Shown: positions 23,685 through 45,819 of the stretch, piece after piece
Position numbering within the stretch: position 1 is the first letter of the stretch
How the letters are laid out: each line of letters starts with the position of its first letter
NCBI GenBank assembly: GCA_000004985.1
Contig: GG738889.1
From: Naegleria gruberi
Taxonomy: Eukaryota
Length of the DNA stretch: 64,000 nt
Strand: one strand, 5' to 3'
Translations under genes and position numbers: made by a program
The notes under the pieces: generated by a model
What the model saw: the letters and a program-made list of their open reading frames with translations, nothing else
What the model was told of the DNA's origin: nothing
Databases searched by the model: none

Positions 23685-24964
23685 CTAATTTACTATTACT
23701 GTACAATGAATCTTTCCTCCATCACCAATATTTCCTCTTCCTCCCAATCCAGTGGATTTCACAGCAAAGTTCAATAGTAAATTGGTTGCACCTGGAGCGC
23801 AAAATCCAGCCATACCATCTATAATTATTGATCTATTCAATTGAGTCCAAGTAATATTAAGCTTCATGGCTCCACTTGTCCAATTTCCTGAAGTGGAAAC
23901 AAGTGGGCTATAATTTGAAATTTCTCCATTATTAAATTCATTCACATTGAATTCAAAAGTATTATCGTAACCATCTGTGAGAGGAAGATAAGCTTCACCA
24001 CGAATACCAGGCAAACGGTTCCAAATACAGGTTGTTACAACCAGTCTCACTCTCTTCACATTAACTGAACCATAGGTTGGTGATTGTAAGCTTGTGGATG
24101 CATATGGCATACTATAACTTGTGTACATGGATTGATTCAATGGTTGTACTGATGATCCGTACATGGATTGATTCATTTGAGGAGGAGGTTGTTGGTTAAA
24201 TGTTGTTGGAGTCATTGGTTGTGGAGTTGGCATTGGAGTGGAAGGTGTCGAATAACCTGGCACATTCTGATTGAATTGATTTACCATTGAATTATTGTTA
24301 TCATTACTTGGAGCAGTTGGTTCATTTCTTCCGAAAATACTTCCACCTTCTTCCAATTCCTTAACTCGTTTTGATATCTTTTCATTTTCTTCTTTAAGCT
24401 TTTGATTTTCACTTGTTAGAGAATTAACTTTTGTTTCCAAATCTTCCAATGCCTTAACAACCATAGGGTTTGCAAATATGCAATCATGAGACAAGTGTTC
24501 ATCCATCAATTTTGATAATCCAAACCATCCACAACCAAATTTCCCCATCTTACAAGCACACTTTCTTCCTGTACAAAACTGATCCAAATGCTTCTTCAAA
24601 TCACCTCTCGGAATTTTCTTCAAATCACAATCAGCACCATTAGGACATTCAACCTCTAAAGAATTTGCAATCAATTCCGCATGATAATTATGAATAAAAC
24701 TGCTAAAATCCTGCTTATCATTACATTGAACAGGGGATGCACTACAATGTGGACAATCTTTATATAATTAATTAATTATAAATAATTTTAATGTCGTTAA
24801 ATTATTATTATATGTGATCAAAACTTACTGTTATGTCCTTTAAGCCATTTATGTATACAATCATAACAGAACAATTTATGACACGATTTACATTCTCTGT
24901 TATCCAACACAATCTCGGAACAAATCAAACATTCATAAAATTCGAGGGAAACACTGTTGAGCAT
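23685..24964 (-). CDS. TRAF-like protein: RING finger + TRAF-type zinc fingers + coiled coil + Q/P/N-rich region; 2 exons
   Basis: Exon 1 (24829..24964; ATG at 24964..24962) encodes a C3HC4 RING start, MLNSVSLEFYECLICSEIVLDNRECKSCHKLFCYDCIHKWLKGHN. Intron 24758..24828 (GTAAGT..tataaag, phase 1) follows. Exon 2 (23685..24757) continues the RING with CPHC, then TRAF zinc fingers (CPNGADCDLKKIPRGDLKKHLDQFCTGRKCACKMGKFGCGWFG...HLSHDC) and a coiled coil. Confidence 0.7.
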
Positions 24965-37337: not shown

Positions 37338-40300
37338 TTATGATATTTTTTTTAAAATGGTGACAGAATTTAATCGGAGTTCTTTAATGGTATCGGAAAC
37401 GGAAGTGTTTATTTGAAAATTGTAACTGATCTGATTACATTCTTNNNNNNNNNNNNNNNNNNNNNNNNNNNNNNNNNNNNNNNNNNNNNNNNNNNNNNNN
37501 NNNNNNNNNNNNNNNNNNNNNNNNNNNNNNNNNNNNNNNNNNNNNNNNNNNNNNNNNNNNNNNNNNNNNNNNNNNNNNNNNNCTGGTACCCAAGGTGCTG
37601 GTGGATTACATCCACCAATTGGTTCAATATCATCAGAGTGAGTAATTACGAGGGAATAATTTTGGTTCTTCAGCAATTTGTAAGCTGTTACTGAAACACC
37701 AACAAGTATGTCTTCATCAATTTCCTCAATTCTGACCTTTTCAACGTTATTTAAGTGATCACCGTCTGAGTTGTCATTTCCTGGATATCTAGTTGATCTT
37801 GTACTATTTTCTGAGAATACATAGGCATTCAAATCCAAATCTTGATAAAGCTCAAACTTGGTACTTGTGGCAGCCATGTCATACCAAGCAATTGTGGCAT
37901 ATAGGAATGTAGATCCAGAAGATGGTGATCTACCTGCAACTCTTCTAAAGCAATAGTTTTGTGTTTGACTTTGTGTGATGGTCTTTCTATCAACTGTGAA
38001 TAATTCAAAGGTTGAACCAACAAATTTAAGAACTGAAGACAAGGAAACGAGACCAAATCCAGTATAAGCATTTGGATAACCCATCTTTTTAAGGTCAGAC
38101 ATTGAGCCTCTTCCATCAAGTGACACCATACCCTTCAATGGTTGTGAGGAATGAACAAGGGTGGCTTTAAGCAATGGTCCAGATGGATTACTATGAACAG
38201 TACGAGTCATAAAATATTCACGAATGAGAGCTGTAACATGTTAATAAAAATTCAAATAATTCAATGATAACATACCCAAACTTGATGCAACTAGAGGTGT
38301 TGCCATGGAAGTTCCTCTGAGTGTCAATACAGATGCTTTGTTAGTTGGGGTTGGTCTTCCTGTTCCACATTGGAAAGTACTGAGACTACCATCAGAGTGC
38401 ATAGATTCAATTTCATAACCAGGAGCAACAAGATCAGGTTTGATTCTGTTACCAATTGCTGGTCCACGTCCAGAGAAGTAAGCTAAATTTTCCTTTGTAA
38501 AGTATTTCTTACTGTCAGAGTAAGTCTTCTTCATAAAAGTGCTGCAGCACAATGATTTAACAAGGTTGGTCTGGTCATCTGTTGTTCCCTTAAAGTTACA
38601 ACATTCCTCTTCTGATGAAACCTTGATGGCTTGGAAAATACTGGTAAAATCAACATGGTCAACTGCACTGATAAAACCGTCATTTGTAGTTTGAGAAGCA
38701 CCAACACTGATAACATTCTTTGAGGTGGTTGGACTACCAATATTACCAACATCAGATGTATGTCCTTCGTTACCAGCTGCAAATAAGACAACAAAATCAT
38801 CATGATCCCATGTGAATTTGTCGATATCTTGAGCTTTGGTATCATAGGTATTACAAATTTGGCAGCAAGATTTTCCAAACATTGTTTTACAGAAATCATT
38901 TGAAACAGTCTCTCCTGTTTTACCATAGTCTGTATCAATTGCCCATTTACAATTACAATTATATTTACAATTAAACACTGCAGAGAAAGAACATCCCCAA
39001 CTATTGGAATGGATTCTCACGTTTGCCTTTTGATATGGAATCTTGAACAAGTAATTGTACAAATCAGGTGGAATGAGAAGACTACTTCCTCCAGTTTTCA
39101 TAATGTCAGTAAAGAAGAGCTTGGCACCTGGTGCACCTCCATTATACTTTTTAAGATCTGAAAAAGTATCTGCACTTGTCAAAATGCTTCCAGCAATACT
39201 GCCAGCAACGTGAGTACCATGTCCATCACCACCATCTTGATCGTCTGACTTGTAAATATTTCCATACTTATCTTCGAGAGCCACAGTTTGATAAGAGACA
39301 ATCTTTCTGTGTTCCATATTGACAGTGTTGACTGGAACTTCATTATCAGGATCATGGAAGAAGCATTGGTCAGAATCAATACCAGTATCAGCTACACCAA
39401 CTACAACTCCCTTTCCTGTAATTCCATTCTCCCAAATGAATAAATTTGAGCTAGAATTGGCAGTGGTTGGAGTATCAGCATTAATTCCTTGCATAATAAT
39501 ATTTGGATAATAGTTCATGAGAGTGTATGGAAGTTGTCTTTCAACGCTTTGGATAGCATCATGTTTCATGATAATCTTCATGGCTTCAGAGGCAATCTTT
39601 GGAGAACAAGTGAACCCGATTCTATCTTGACCTTCCTTCTTGACTGAAAAGAATAGTGGTTCTTCATCCTTGGATAATTTGGCAATTTCGTTTGAGAACT
39701 TTTCTTGCAATTCCTTATTCAACTGAGAGACAATTGTTTCTGTTTCCTTTTCAATTGTTTCATCGAGAATGGCTCTCAAACTTGGAGTAATAGTGGCAAA
39801 AACTGAAATATGTGAAACAATAGATGATGCCACTGCACGAGTATGCCTATTTAGATTGGAATTTGCCGACTCGAATCTAGTTAATTTTTCAAGAGTTTCC
39901 TCCAATGTAGTTTCCTTAATTTCTGTTTGAGTCGTGGCAGCTTTGTTTTCCCACATTTCCTGCATCTTGGTAAAATCAAGATTGGATTTGAATTTAGAAT
40001 CAACTCTTCCAATCCACTCGATAGTGGATCCATACTCTGTTTCAATAGAGGCAAGTTTGGCCAACTCGGACATTTCGGATGGTGTTGCTCTAATAGCAAG
40101 GAGAACACCATTGGAAAGTGTTCCAATAATTGAATGCTCCAAAGCTTTTCCGAGTCTGTTGGCGGTAATTGCTACATTATTTACAGTATTAGTATTTACA
40201 GTCAATGCATTCAAGAGAGCACCATTAAACTTTGATAAATCCAAATTTGAGCTAGTTAATCTTACAAAGTATTGAATTGGTTCTTCTTTAGAATCTCTTG

Positions 40301-40571
40301 TATTTTTCGAAATTAATTGATCCAGTAAATTATTACTTGCTGACATTTCAAGCAATGCATCGTTGATCATAATAGTTGAAGTTACAATTTTTGGAGAAAA
40401 GTAGGAACGAAATCTTCCAACATTGAATGCACTCATCATTTGATTGTTTTGCACCAACAATACAATTGAAAGCACAAAAGCAATACAAACAACCACAAGA
40501 GTACCAACAGTAGATAACCTTCTCAATCCTCCTCCATCACCACTTTTCCGGATTGTATTATTTTGTATCAT
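37338..40571 (-). CDS. membrane-anchored subtilisin-like serine protease (S8), 2 exons; C-terminal part interrupted by a 138-N gap
   Basis: ATG at 40571..40569. An N-terminal TM/signal anchor, LVVVCIAFVLSIVLLV, is followed by a pro-region. The catalytic triad is D in GVADTGID, H in GHGTHVAGSIAG and S in GTSMATP, with a Cys-rich insert. Intron 38231..38275 (GTATGT..gttacag, phase 1) joins ...GTSMATPLVASSL|ALIREYFMTRTVHSNPSGPLLKATL.... The ORF then crosses the gap 37445-37582, so the frame and stop after the gap are not trustworthy. Confidence 0.75.
37445..37582. other. assembly gap (138 N)
   Basis: Run of N. Confidence 1.
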
Positions 40572-41037: not shown

Positions 41038-41670
41038 ATGTTTAGTGGAAAGGCATCGGAAATTATTCCTGGCCAATTGTATCTAGGTAAGAAGAAGTAA
41101 CTGAAATATAATTAATTTAATTAATTTAATTTAGGAAGTATGGCCTCCGCTAGAAGAGTATTAGATATGGAAACTCTTAATATCGGTTCGATTGTGAATT
41201 GTACTTGTGAGGTTCCGAATTATTATGAAAATCATGAAGAAATTGCTGTAAAATATATGAAAGTTGAAATTGATGATAATGCCTACCAGGATATTTCAAA
41301 ACACTTTGATGCTACATTTGAGTTTATTAGTAACAGTATTGAAAATGAAGGTAAAGCTGTTTTGGTTCATTGTCAGGCAGGTATTTCAAGAAGTTCAACA
41401 ATTGTAATTGCATATCTGATGAGGAAATTGGATATTTCTCTCAAAGATGGTAAGTAGTTCATCACCAGTTTTTTGGAATTTCATTTAGCTTTTGTTAAAG
41501 TTAGAAATTGTAGAAGTATAATCATGCCAAATATGGGATTTTACAAACAACTGTTAGAATATGAGATGAAATTGAGAGGAGTTCAATCTTTGGAAAGAAA
41601 TCAATATTATGAATTGAGTTTTATTGAAAATTCATTGTTTAATATTTATTCCAGTAATATACAGAATTAA
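41038..41670 (+). CDS. dual-specificity protein phosphatase (small, about 182 aa); 3 exons
   Basis: Exon 1 (41038..41086) is MFSGKASEIIPGQLYL. Intron 41087..41134 (GTAAGA..atttag). Exon 2 (41135..41449) is GSMASARRVLDMETLNIGSIVNCT...VLVHCQAGISRSSTIVIAYLM, with the HCxxGxxRS signature. Intron 41450..41488 is only 39 nt (GTAAGT..catttag). Exon 3 (41489..41670) is AFVKVRNCRSIIMPNMGFYKQLLEYE.... Confidence 0.75.
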
Positions 41671-41702: not shown

Positions 41703-43331
41703 TTAAAGAATAATTTTAAACACTTCAATTTCTTCAACTTTAAACATCTCACTTCCTGCCAAATAACTATTCGCTTCTGTTGTTCCTTTTTTGTATCCTT
41801 TGGGCAGTTCATAAGCGTTGCCAAAGTTTGATGATGAAAAGTAATTCAAGTTGCAATCATTGAAAATAGTAATATCATTGCTTACCAGGGTATAACCTCC
41901 AAATCCTGGCATAAAATCCTCAAGTAAAGAAATAGCATAACATCCTTTTTTGACTCTGAACTTTTTGAATTGATAATTGTTATTTGTTGAATCAATTTTG
42001 AAAATGAATGCCAAATCATCCGTAAAACTATCTTTCATCCAAGATTTTGAAGTAAATGCACCAAATATTTGGTTGTGTTCTGCTGATTTGATAATTGTTA
42101 ATGTTGGACCTTGATTACAACATTTTGAATGAAAATTTTCTGCTTTGAATCCATCTCTTGACCCTCTGTATAATAATTGAGGAATTGCTTTACTATTGGT
42201 ATGTGAGCTAATTTCTAACGAAATTGATTCACTATTAATAATATTAGAAATCAAGAAATGTGTAATATTTGTGCATTGAGTAAACAATACATCTGTAAAC
42301 TTGAAAGACTGGAAATCCTTTCCTGTTAGGTTCAGGGTAATATTTTGGAATTGAATATTTTTGATATTTTTGTTTGTAAATTGTTTTAAATTAATTAAGC
42401 ATGAATCAAATTTGCTTCCCTTAAATTTTGATAAATCCTTCAATTTTCCCAAATCTGAATTCTTAAATGTACAATTATTAAATAAAGTGGTTGATAAACT
42501 TGGTTCAATTAATTTGAAATCAATTTCTTCAAATATTGTTCCAGTGAAATCACATTCAATATATTTACAATTAATCAATCCATTATTCTTTTTAAAATGT
42601 GTTTTGATTTTACACTTTTCAAAAGTAATATCCTCAAATTTAGATCCATCAATAATTGAGTTTGTAAATATTACATTATCGAATTTAAATTGTTTGAAAC
42701 AAATGTTTGATAAATTACATCTTGAAAAATCAACCTTTTGAATCAACTCACAAACATCAATTTTAGCTCTTGACAAGTTACTTTTTGAAATATTAGTATT
42801 ATTCAAAATAGAATTACTGAGATTACATTCAATCATATCACATTCTATAAAATTAGCATTAGTTAAATTACAATTACTAAAATCACATCCTTTCAGTATT
42901 AGCATCTTGAAATTTGAACTTTCTAAATTCATTCCACTAAAATCACAAGCACTCAAATTATTAAAATTATAATATTTAAAATTCAATGACCTCTTTTGAA
43001 TTTTGTGTAAATTGACAAAGTTTTTCAAATTGAGTCTTGTTGACTCTTCATTTTCCAATTCATTAATAATATTTTTCAATTCAAACTTTTTACAGGTATT
43101 TAAAAGGGATCGTTTCACATCATTACTCAATTCAATTGCAATAGCTCCGTATTGTAACCACTCGAGAATATGTTTAAAAACAATTGGATCACAATCAATA
43201 AAATAAACTGGATCAGAGTTGAATGTCGAACATTGTGTTTGATAGCATGGATGTTGACCAGTGAACATTTTCTTGAATAAATTATCTGGCTCTCTTTCAT
43301 TATGAATAAAATCACCCAACGAAACTGTCAT
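41703..43331 (-). CDS. BTB/POZ (T1-type) - pentapeptide-repeat - TLDc domain protein
   Basis: ATG at 43331..43329. The N-terminus, VYFIDCDPIVFKHILEWLQYGAI, resembles a K-channel-tetramerisation-type BTB. The middle is about 250 aa of pentapeptide-like repeats (CDFSGMNLESSNFKMLILKGCDFSNCNLTNANFIECDMIECNLSNS...). The C-terminal TLDc-like block is LLYRGSRDGFKAENFHSKCCNQGPTLTIIKSAEHNQIFGAFTSKSW...GYKKGTTEANSYLAGSEMFKVEEIEVFKI. Confidence 0.7.
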   Translation of the reverse strand: MTVSLGDFIHNEREPDNLFKKMFTGQHPCYQTQCSTFNSDPVYFIDCDPIVFKHILEWLQYGAIAIELSNDVKRSLLNTCKKFELKNIINELENEESTRLNLKNFVNLHKIQKRSLNFKYYNFNNLSACDFSGMNLESSNFKMLILKGCDFSNCNLTNANFIECDMIECNLSNSILNNTNISKSNLSRAKIDVCELIQKVDFSRCNLSNICFKQFKFDNVIFTNSIIDGSKFEDITFEKCKIKTHFKKNNGLINCKYIECDFTGTIFEEIDFKLIEPSLSTTLFNNCTFKNSDLGKLKDLSKFKGSKFDSCLINLKQFTNKNIKNIQFQNITLNLTGKDFQSFKFTDVLFTQCTNITHFLISNIINSESISLEISSHTNSKAIPQLLYRGSRDGFKAENFHSKCCNQGPTLTIIKSAEHNQIFGAFTSKSWMKDSFTDDLAFIFKIDSTNNNYQFKKFRVKKGCYAISLLEDFMPGFGGYTLVSNDITIFNDCNLNYFSSSNFGNAYELPKGYKKGTTEANSYLAGSEMFKVEEIEVFKIIL

Positions 43332-44104
43332 GATTTTTCCTCTAACATTTAAATGAATAGGTTTGTTACTTGCTTCTAATTTCTCTCATAATTTTTACAC
43401 ATGTCTTGAATTGACTGATGGTTCTGAACTCGATGCATTTCTAGACAAGCGTTACATTCCACTGATTTCCTGATGCATTGTTCTTTCTGATGTGATCGAC
43501 TGCTTTTTGTGCATGCACTGAAAAGAGAGCAAGAATGAATCAATAGATGAAATACGAAAAATTCTTAACATTTCAGAGCAATAAGCGATATGATACTTGT
43601 TGCAACCTATATTTTCTAGTAATAATGTACATAGAATGTCTTAATTGATTTCTGACCTTATTGTTGTAATACAGCAAAAATAGTATATTATCCATTTTAG
43701 TACATTAACAAATGTTTTGGAATAAGCAGCTTTTTTGGAAATGCCTACAACAGGCCTCTTTGGCTGCTGATTTTTTTCCATGGACCAATAATACAATAGC
43801 TCCTCTAACAAACAATATATTGAAAGTATTCTTCATTATCAATAAATCTTCAATTTTTCAATATCCATTCAACTCCCAAGCCAAAGTAAAATATTTTGTA
43901 ATCATCATTCCAGTTTTTCATCTTTCCAAGGACTCCGCATTATCAAGCTTTTGGCTTTGAGATGGGTGACTTGCATTTAGTCTTCATCATCTTGTTGCGT
44001 TGAAGGTTCGGCTACGTTTTTGGCTTTCATCCCTTCTTCGAGGACTTCTTGCAAAAAAATATTTGACAAACTCCAATATAAAACCTTCTTCTTTTGTTTA
44101 AAAA

Positions 44105-45819
44105 ATGATGAAGAAAATCGTTTCTGGTACCTCTGCTAGCAGACGTATCACTTCTGTTGAAACTGTAAAGAAGATGTTGTTCGCTCAACAAAGCAGATTT
44201 GAATCCAAAGTTTATTCATTCAATATTGATAAGGTAAGAATTGTCCGATATGTTGTTTCTATCATGATGTTTTCTGATGAATGATTTTTATATGTATTGT
44301 TATTTGATGTTGCTAAAACATGTTTGTTGTGGATTTGATGCACTTTTTGTATAATGTTGTGTTTTTGAAAATTGATTGGATTTTTTCGTCATCATGATTT
44401 TATTGGCTTATTGTTATAATACATTTCTACTATCATTATTGCTATCATATCATCAACAACTATATATGAATATATATTATATACAAAAAACATTCCTAAC
44501 AACAATTGATAATATCTATTATTAACGTTACCTAATATTATTATTGATAATAATACAACTATTAATTCATATTATAATCACATCATCATCCAACTAATAA
44601 CAATGAAATGATAATAGGAAAAGGCTTTCAAGTTCCATCTCCCAACCAAACATATGGAAGGTATTAACTGGGAAGGTCCAAAGTCTGAAGTTAAACTCAC
44701 TAAGGAAGAATTGATTGCCATGTACCGTATGATGGCTTTGATTAGAAGATTTGAATTGGTTTCTGACCAACAATACAAGGCTCGTAACATTCGTGGTTTC
44801 TGCCATTTGTACAGTGGTCAAGAAGCTATCTGTGTTGGTATTGAACATGCCACCAATCGTGCTGACTCTGTCATTACTGCTTATCGTGATCACGGTTTCC
44901 AATTGTGTAGAGGTGGTTCTGTTGAAAGCACCATGGCTGAACAATTAGGTCGTGCCACTGGTTGCTCAAAGGGTAAGGGTGGTTCTATGCACATGTACAA
45001 GATTGACCAAAACTTCTTTGGTGGTAACGGTATTGTCGGTGCTCAAGTCCCAGTTGGTGCTGGTCTTGCCTTTGCTCACTCCTATTTGGATAGATTGAAT
45101 AACAAGCAAACCAAGGATAAGAATGTTACTTTTGCTCTCTATGGTGATGGTGCTGCTAACGTAAGTTGTTTCAATATTAATGGTTTTAACACAAACAATT
45201 TGAATTTGCATTTTCACATAATTATTACATTTTTCAATATATATTTAAATAATAGCAAGGGCAAATCTATGAAGCTTTCAACATGGCCAAGTTGTGGCAC
45301 ATTCCAGTTATCTTTGTCTGTGAAAACAACAAGTATGGTATGGGTACTTCCATGCAACGTTCTTCTGCTTCTACTGATTACTACACTAGAGGTGATTTCA
45401 TTCCAGGTATTTGGGTTGATGGTATGGACATTATTGCTGTCTATGAAGCTGCTCGTTATGCTAAGGAATATTCTCAACAATTTGGTCCAATCGTTCTTGA
45501 ACCAGAAACTTACAGATATTATGGTCACTCCATGTCTGATCCTGGTATTTCTTACAGAACCAGAGATGAAGTCAATGAAGTCAGAAATACTAGAGATCCT
45601 ATTGCCAGATTGAAGGCTAGAATGATCGAACAAGGTATTGCTACTGAAGATGAATTGAAGGAAATTGATAACCAAGTTAAGGAAGAAGTTCAACAAGGTA
45701 CTGAAAAGGCTATTGCTGCTCCACTCCCACCTCTCCACGAACTCGTTGAAGATGTCATGGTTGGTCCACACGTTGTCAGAGGTAGAACTGTTGACGAAAT
45801 GTACTCATTCAGTAAATAA
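44105..45819 (+). CDS. PDHA: pyruvate dehydrogenase E1 component alpha subunit, mitochondrial; 3 exons
   Basis: Exon 1 (44105..44233) is [23 protein letters not shown]...NIDK, a presequence. Intron 44234..44617 is 384 nt (GTAAGA..ataatag). Exon 2 (44618..45160) is [21 protein letters not shown]...YRMM...[12 protein letters not shown]...GKGGSMHMY...YGDGAAN. Intron 45161..45255 (GTAAGT..aatag). Exon 3 (45256..45819) is [32 protein letters not shown]...[12 protein letters not shown]. This is a close match to PDHA1 throughout. Confidence 0.85.

Follow-up and report, generated by a model that had tools for sequence, protein, structure and literature searches.

The DNA analyzed here is a 64,000-nucleotide stretch of Naegleria gruberi nuclear DNA (contig GG738889.1 of assembly GCA_000004985.1, hereafter the window) of ~34% GC, and the subject of this analysis is an uninterrupted open reading frame (ORF) on its minus strand, at 41703–43331, which encodes 542 amino acids followed by a TAA stop codon (41703–41705) and whose neighboring genes have short introns. 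A first-pass annotation made from the letters of the sequence had given the ORF exactly this position and length, and had proposed that its product is a fusion of a T1-type BTB domain, a long pentapeptide-repeat (PPR) solenoid and a C-terminal TLDc domain. These assignments and their order were upheld by the agreement of Pfam, AlphaFold2 (AF2) and Foldseek, and the ORF encodes a single genuine polypeptide with a KCTD-type (T1) BTB domain, a ~250-residue pentapeptide-repeat β-helix and a C-terminal TLDc domain. The same protein (100% identity) is deposited as N. gruberi XP_002673705/EFC40961, a "predicted protein" (NAEGRDRAFT_71251) on a 348-kb scaffold. With the 18 in-frame codons directly upstream of the annotated start codon included (hereafter the extended ORF), the frame is open for 560 codons, for which the chance probability is ~3.5e-22 at the local base composition, where a stop is expected every ~12 codons.

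The C-terminal domain matched Pfam PF07534 over residues 365–540 with a score of 78 bits (cut-off 24.5; E = 1e-21), the match covering profile positions 7–169 of 170. In a full-length AF2 model computed from a seven-sequence alignment of the family described below (mean predicted local distance difference test score, pLDDT, of 74), the TLDc region was matched by Foldseek to solved TLDc folds with TM-scores (TMt, normalized to the target here and throughout) of 0.62–0.71 and a root-mean-square deviation (rmsd) of ~3 Å over ~160 residues. These folds were Skywalker (6r82), NCOA7 (8ar6/7obp/7uzg), zebrafish Oxr2 (4acj) and mEAK7 (7u8o). A search of the PDB with the single TLDc sequence reached only Skywalker, and a profile of the family added mEAK7, Oxr2 and NCOA7.

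Three Pfam pentapeptide-repeat families exceeded their cut-offs in the ORF, and a strict five-residue hydrophobic periodicity extends over ~255 residues (~119 to ~375 of the extended ORF), corresponding to ~50 repeats in ~12 coils. The solenoid was modeled by AF2 with a pLDDT of 83–93 and was matched by Foldseek to HetL, AlbG and Qnr, and phmmer matched it to pentapeptide-repeat structures both designed and natural. The length of the solenoid ranges from ~150 to ~500 residues among family members, and the linker that joins it to the TLDc domain is itself conserved in the paralogs.

On the annotated ORF alone the Pfam family BTB_2 (PF02214) scored 20.2 bits, which is below its cut-off of 21.4, and profile positions 1–18 were left uncovered; when the 18 upstream codons were added, the score rose to 23.1 bits and the match spanned profile positions 1–77. 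Neither the canonical BTB (PF00651) nor BACK (PF07707) was matched in Pfam scans of the ORF and its paralogs. A BTB profile of the family, compared with the PDB, found the BTB domain of KCTD9 (5bxh) as its best match (E = 7e-7), followed by KCTD15, KCTD1, SHKBP1, KCTD17, KCTD5 and KCTD16. The BTB domain was poorly resolved in the full-length AF2 model (pLDDT 45–75), and a model of the BTB domain alone, from 19 family sequences, resolved the fold with a pLDDT of 89.8. Foldseek matched the latter model to T1/KCTD BTB domains only (TMt 0.8–0.87, rmsd 2–3 Å), namely those of KCTD1, 15, 17, 9, 16 and 10, the top ones all being pentameric, and model and matches together gave the β1-β2-α1-α2-β3-α3-α4-α5 succession of the KCTD-like BTB fold. 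The first-pass designation of the domain as T1-type, and its comparison of the BTB-then-PPR layout to KCTD9/FIP2, are thus borne out, given that KCTD9 heads the sequence matches in the PDB and that the fold is that of the KCTD BTB domains.

A Naegleria family with the same domain order

Homologs with the same order of domains number at least 10 and were found in N. gruberi, N. lovaniensis, N. fowleri and environmental contigs. P0003, P0004, P0005, P0006, P0007 and P0008 are 29–47% identical to the window protein by BLASTP and collinear with it over BTB, PPR and TLDc, and the order recurs in N. fowleri P0111 and in environmental P0121, P0251 and P0203. The full-length layout of the family is RING, second Cys/His motif, coiled coil, BTB, PPR and TLDc, as exemplified by NAEGRDRAFT_80657 of N. 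gruberi, FDP41_001763 of N. fowleri and C9374_011707 of N. lovaniensis; a head of this kind lies upstream of the conserved segment in P0003, P0005, P0008 (N. lovaniensis), P0111 (N. fowleri), P0144 and P0257. The paralog RING reached 17–28 bits with Pfam RING families, all under their cut-offs, and its pattern of cysteines is conserved, while the second motif reads CxMCKxxVxRGxLKxHQEKYC and is followed by ~100 residues of coiled coil. The window copy shares with these paralogs the collinear BTB-PPR-TLDc core but has no detectable RING, second Cys/His motif or coiled coil. Because two members with a complete BTB and no RING, P0006 (N. gruberi) and P0007 (a Logan contig), exist as distinct diverged genes (37% identity), the headless form would seem, from the sequence comparison, to be a viable architecture.

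A near-identical copy, P0002 (NAEGRDRAFT_76763), is 98% identical in amino acid sequence to the window protein over 314 residues (window 42444–43385), with six diagnostic substitutions. The match covers the BTB-PPR part; the copy still has the coiled coil and the second motif, and it is placed on a small scaffold of its own (7.5 kb). It may represent a haplotig, a recent segmental duplication or a fault of the assembly.

The taxonomic distribution of the architecture was drawn from a profile search run exhaustively over 1.84 billion representative proteins and from word-indexed searches of 5.8 billion proteins, the matches of which were then Pfam-scanned and named. The best 150 of the exhaustive search were examined; these were partly saturated by giant proteins with PPR and multiple TLDc domains, and weaker tri-domain proteins elsewhere are possible. 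Among the matches listed, all named proteins with BTB_2, PPR and TLDc were from Naegleria (N. gruberi, N. lovaniensis and N. fowleri), in keeping with the first-pass view that the combination is unusual. The BTB, PPR, TLDc order is also carried by four environmental contigs (P0007, P0121, P0203 and P0251), on which non-splicing gene callers give single ORFs and two of which are Naegleria-like in composition, at 33–37% GC. The window protein is best described as a lineage-restricted combination of known domain families that is present in databases only as an uncharacterized prediction.

Partial and alternative combinations of these domains were also found. P0253 of Willaertia magna, a member of the sister genus, is 893 amino acids long and has an extra N-terminal BTB_2 region, a RING, a family-type BTB and a TLDc domain, with BTB_2 matched in three stretches in all, and no pentapeptide repeats were found by Pfam in the ~150 residues from its family-type BTB to its TLDc. 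A BTB-TLDc arrangement was identified in N. gruberi P0131 and in environmental P0126, P0128 and P0174 from the family BTB profile and a matched TLDc region, the full Pfam scan among these covering P0131 only. N. lovaniensis P0194 is BTB-PPR only, P0256 of the diatom Ditylum is BTB_2-SAM-TLDc, and proteins of Glomeromycota are BTB-BACK-TLDc. Also among the top matches of the exhaustive search were proteins with 4–8 tandem TLDc domains (P0110 with seven, P0112 with eight, and P0123) and P0119, which has a RING, a protein kinase and five TLDc domains.

The 5′ end of the gene model and the surrounding genes

The annotated methionine is residue 19 of the extended ORF and lies within strand β2 of the BTB domain (residues 17–22, KIMTVS), while in the BTB model strand β1 (residues 9–14, PIHLNV) is encoded by codons upstream of the annotated ATG. 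The segment at 43332–43385 encodes the tail of the family coiled coil and β1; P0002 has the identical segment, and all paralogs conserve it (consensus REKLExSNKPIHLNVxG). The homology to P0002 and the paralogs sets in precisely at 43385, with an in-frame TGA immediately before it. The ORF stands as first described, but its ATG, at 43331, does not mark where the BTB domain really begins, and the 5′ gene model is wrong or truncated.

The RING/Cys-His/coiled-coil head of the paralogs was sought by tblastn of the whole window with seven homologs and with low-stringency settings, and only 43388–43341 was matched. Weak coiled-coil-like matches at 55.8–56.4 kb and 24.4–24.6 kb belong to other genes. 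Since no such head was found and the annotated start lies inside the BTB domain, the copy must either be truncated or begin with a short exon that escaped detection. Two AG dinucleotides, at 43385–86 and 43383–84, are candidate splice acceptors, and 24 candidate upstream exons (ATG...GT) are phase-compatible with them, none being supported by homology or preferred over the others. On our reading of the sequence, the locus would be a recent 5′-truncated duplicate of a P0002-like gene that either picked up a new, short first exon or fails to yield a stable BTB domain.

Directly upstream, at 43388–43545 (−), there is an acceptor-like tract (ttcttgctctcttttcag) and then, in a different frame, an ORF that shows a C-x2-C...H-Q-x5-C pattern, and a 1-nt change in the A-run at 43380–43382 would join the ORF at 43388–43483 to the BTB frame. 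The resemblance of this ORF to the second zinc-binding motif of the family is loose, its profile score being not significant (Table 1), and the ORF may represent a relic of that motif, an alternative exon or a chance occurrence.

Table 1. Features of the BTB-PPR-TLDc locus and of the DNA directly upstream of it, in window coordinates
Feature	Position	Strand	Basis
Annotated ORF	41703..43331	−	XP_002673705 / NAEGRDRAFT_71251
TLDc domain, residues 365–540 of the 542-aa ORF	41712..42239	−	Pfam, fold matches
Pentapeptide-repeat right-handed β-helix, ~50 pentapeptides (~12 coils), a few register shifts	42261..43031	−	
T1/KCTD-type BTB, residues 9–112 of the extended ORF	43050..43361	−	Profile, AF2, Foldseek
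18 in-frame codons without a start codon (EKLEASNKPIHLNVRGKI)	43332..43385	−	Homology to P0002 and paralogs
In-frame TGA (43386–43388) and two candidate acceptor AGs	43383..43388	−	Direct sequence reading
Upstream ORF fragment in another frame (...VECNACLEMHRVQNHQSIQDMCKNYERN*), Cys/His spacing	43388..43483	−	Profile score −5.7 bits

The locus lies between genes of ordinary types. A dual-specificity phosphatase gene (DSPc, 90 bits) at 41140–41670 (+), split by a short intron near 41458–41472, converges on the TLDc gene with ~32 bp from stop codon to stop codon, and the downstream neighbor at 38241–40571 (−) is a subtilase (Peptidase_S8, 137 bits). On the upstream side an intron-containing pyruvate dehydrogenase (PDH) E1-alpha gene (E1_dh) at ~44100–45819 (+) is transcribed divergently, and from the BTB to the start of this gene, near 44100, the gap is only ~770 bp. 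Elsewhere in the window, a 329-aa ORF at 23685–24674 (−) encodes a TRAF-type zinc finger (PF02176, 27.6 bits, cut-off 27) followed by a coiled coil and then a Pro/Gln-rich low-complexity stretch; in tblastn the zinc-finger/coiled-coil region of P0005 aligned with it weakly, and it is a gene separate from the BTB-PPR-TLDc locus.

Comparison with known systems and possible modes of action

The window protein shares with KCTD9 of animals and FIP2 of plants a T1/KCTD BTB domain directly before a pentapeptide-repeat β-helix, and differs from them in adding a TLDc domain after the PPR, the paralogs also carrying a RING and a coiled coil N-terminally. The BTB fold matches that of KCTD9 with a TMt of 0.84, but the sequence identity of the two BTB domains is only ~21%, and KCTD1 and KCTD15 score equally well. 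KCTD9 carries an N-terminal KHA domain and ends after its PPR; in Pfam scans of the ORF and the paralogs there was no match to a KHA domain. Because it has no KHA and an additional TLDc, and is no more similar to KCTD9 than to KCTD1/15, the window protein appears not to be a KCTD9 ortholog. A full C-terminal TLDc is held in common with OXR1, NCOA7, TBC1D24/Skywalker, mEAK7/TLDC1 and TLDC2 and with Oxr1p and Rtc5p of yeast, but the N-terminal partners differ, being BTB and PPR in Naegleria and LysM/GRAM, TBC or myristoyl/EF-like in the known TLDc proteins. The BTB-BACK-TLDc proteins, which include Drosophila CG7102, Bombyx Bmmp (in which the BTB is essential to function) and those of Glomeromycota, likewise combine a BTB-superfamily domain with a C-terminal TLDc. 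The CG7102/Bmmp type has a canonical dimeric BTB (PF00651) and BACK and no PPR, whereas in the Naegleria protein the BTB is T1-type (PF02214) and the β-helix replaces BACK. By analogy, the protein would function as a BTB-PPR protein of the KCTD9/FIP2 type to which a C-terminal TLDc has been added, in parallel to the insect and fungal BTB-BACK-TLDc proteins.

The BTB domains of KCTD proteins oligomerize, mostly as pentamers, and many of them, that of KCTD9 included, recruit CUL3; among human KCTDs, pentapeptide repeats occur in KCTD9 only (PMC10856315). The main Cul3 interface in KCTDs is the α2-β3 loop, which is the most variable part of their BTB domains (PMC10856315), so that sequence does not reveal whether CUL3 is bound. 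Within the Naegleria family this loop is strongly conserved (KMFTGxxPxYxTP...VYFIDCDP, with G43, P46, Y48 and T50 invariant or nearly so), which suggests that it is an interface. Given that most paralogs bear an N-terminal RING and coiled coil, the family may consist of RING ubiquitin ligases (E3s) that use the BTB to oligomerize rather than, or besides, to recruit CUL3.

Among the proteins that regulate assembly of the vacuolar ATPase (V-ATPase), those with a TLDc domain have lately come to be seen as the main ones. The five TLDc proteins of mammals all bind this enzyme, and G815, G845 and G896 of Ncoa7 are needed for the binding (PMC8608904); the wider set of conserved Ncoa7 residues on which it depends also takes in S817, L926 and E938. 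Cryo-electron microscopy structures of V-ATPase complexes exist for mEAK7 and NCOA7B (7u8o and 7uzg), both of which are among the TLDc fold matches reported above. Equivalents of Ncoa7 G815 (RDG) and G845 (FGAF/FGGF) align and are invariant across the Naegleria family; FG and EIEV motifs are also invariant in the family and fit Ncoa7 G896 and E938 by inspection only.

Taken as a whole, we tentatively favor, at somewhat below an even chance, a proposal in which a BTB-driven oligomer displays TLDc domains on β-helical arms to a ligand. The BTB domain would build a KCTD-like homo- or hetero-oligomer (tetramer or pentamer), the rigid β-helix would serve as a spacer arm and the TLDc at the tip of the arm would bind the target, for which the V1 sector of the V-ATPase would be the most likely candidate, as it is for every TLDc protein characterized so far. 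Ubiquitin-ligase activity would be provided either by CUL3 recruited through the BTB or by RING-bearing paralogs that co-oligomerize through their BTB domains, which would make the protein a multivalent adaptor that links a TLDc ligand to E3 activity.

Several observations weigh against this proposal. The 18 codons at 43332–43385 (EKLEASNKPIHLNVRGKI) include no ATG, GTG or TTG and have the TGA in frame just 5′ of them, and a profile of 11 paralog N-termini, run against all six frames of the window, found nothing upstream of 43388. As it has no RING, no identifiable start codon upstream of β1 and an in-frame stop before β1, the window copy could be a non-functional recent duplicate. With regard to the V-ATPase, the equivalent of Ncoa7 S817 is not conserved, being K, H, N or T in the family, and the best TLDc sequence matches are Skywalker/TBC1D24 and mEAK7/TLDC1; the isolated TLDc domains of TBC1D24 and of mEAK7/TLDC1 gave no V-ATPase pull-down (PMC8608904). 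With regard to CUL3, the predicted Cul3 complex of KCTD1/15, which are among the closest structural neighbors of the BTB model, is of low reliability (PMC10856315). Literature searches for TLDc with Naegleria, or for all three domains together, found nothing, and a search on Naegleria and cullin returned nothing relevant.

The possibility of a non-functional locus can be stated more fully: a segmental copy of the BTB-PPR-TLDc part of a NAEGRDRAFT_76763-like gene, with its breakpoint in the intron before 'EKLEAS', whose ORF is intact only through youth and which yields no functional protein. The 314 residues shared with P0002 at 98% identity, and a homology that sets in at 43385 right after the in-frame TGA, are what one would expect of such a copy, as are the failure of both tblastn and the N-terminal profile to find a RING/coiled-coil exon in the window, the position of the sole in-frame ATG within strand β2 and the mere ~770 bp that separate the locus from the divergent PDH E1-alpha gene. 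We nevertheless consider this explanation rather unlikely, as the C-terminal 232 residues, which lie beyond the truncated gene model of P0002, are also free of stops in DNA of 28–31% GC, RING-less P0006 and P0007 (37% identity) are distinct diverged genes, and many short, ATG-initiated, phase-compatible exons with GT donors are available upstream.

A second explanation, and one that we likewise hold to be doubtful, is that the protein is a ubiquitin-independent regulator, in which the BTB multimerizes and the TLDc acts directly, like Oxr1p, NCOA7 and mEAK7, so that V-ATPase assembly or activity, or the oxidative-stress response, would be controlled without CUL3 or a RING. The characterized TLDc proteins do work through direct binding and not ubiquitination, the window copy has no detectable RING, and KCTD12/16 and KCTD1/15, of which KCTD1, 15 and 16 are among the closest folds, use their BTB domains for non-Cul3 partners (PMC10856315). 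Against this are the RING-type zinc finger that precedes the same BTB-PPR-TLDc core in most family members and the independent BTB-TLDc, RING-TLDc and RING-kinase-TLDc fusions, which suggest that E3 modules and TLDc are linked recurrently.

That a KCTD9-like BTB-PPR gene and a TLDc gene were read as one through an annotation or assembly artefact, such as the fusing frameshift that the first-pass annotation had raised as a concern, is effectively refuted in spite of the fragmentary N. gruberi gene models that are common in the family (P0002, P0144 and P0257), by the one continuous 560-codon stop-free frame, the conservation of the PPR-TLDc linker among paralogs and the recurrence of the order in three Naegleria species, with the independent assemblies of N. 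lovaniensis, N. fowleri and four environmental contigs.

The proposal of an E3-linked oligomer that presents TLDc domains can be extended to a more specific one, which we regard as improbable in its full form, namely that vahlkampfiids (Naegleria and Willaertia) have evolved an oligomeric, self-contained RING-BTB E3 family in which the TLDc on its β-helix arm recognizes the V-ATPase of the contractile vacuole or phagolysosome, the RING-less copies being CUL3-dependent or modulatory subunits of hetero-oligomers. If this were true, it would be the first direct link of TLDc-mediated V-ATPase regulation to ubiquitination.

The gain from this analysis is modest: the gene model has been corrected, in that its start codon lies within the BTB domain, and an unstudied, lineage-restricted family has been defined for which a function is inferred. 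To our knowledge, KCTD9/FIP2-type BTB-pentapeptide proteins have no defined substrates. The fusion of these modules, usually with a RING, suggests the hypothesis that an E3 ligase may recognize its substrate through a TLDc module, in which case the β-helix of KCTD9 would gain a role as a spacer. The family that leads to this hypothesis occurs in the pathogen N. fowleri.

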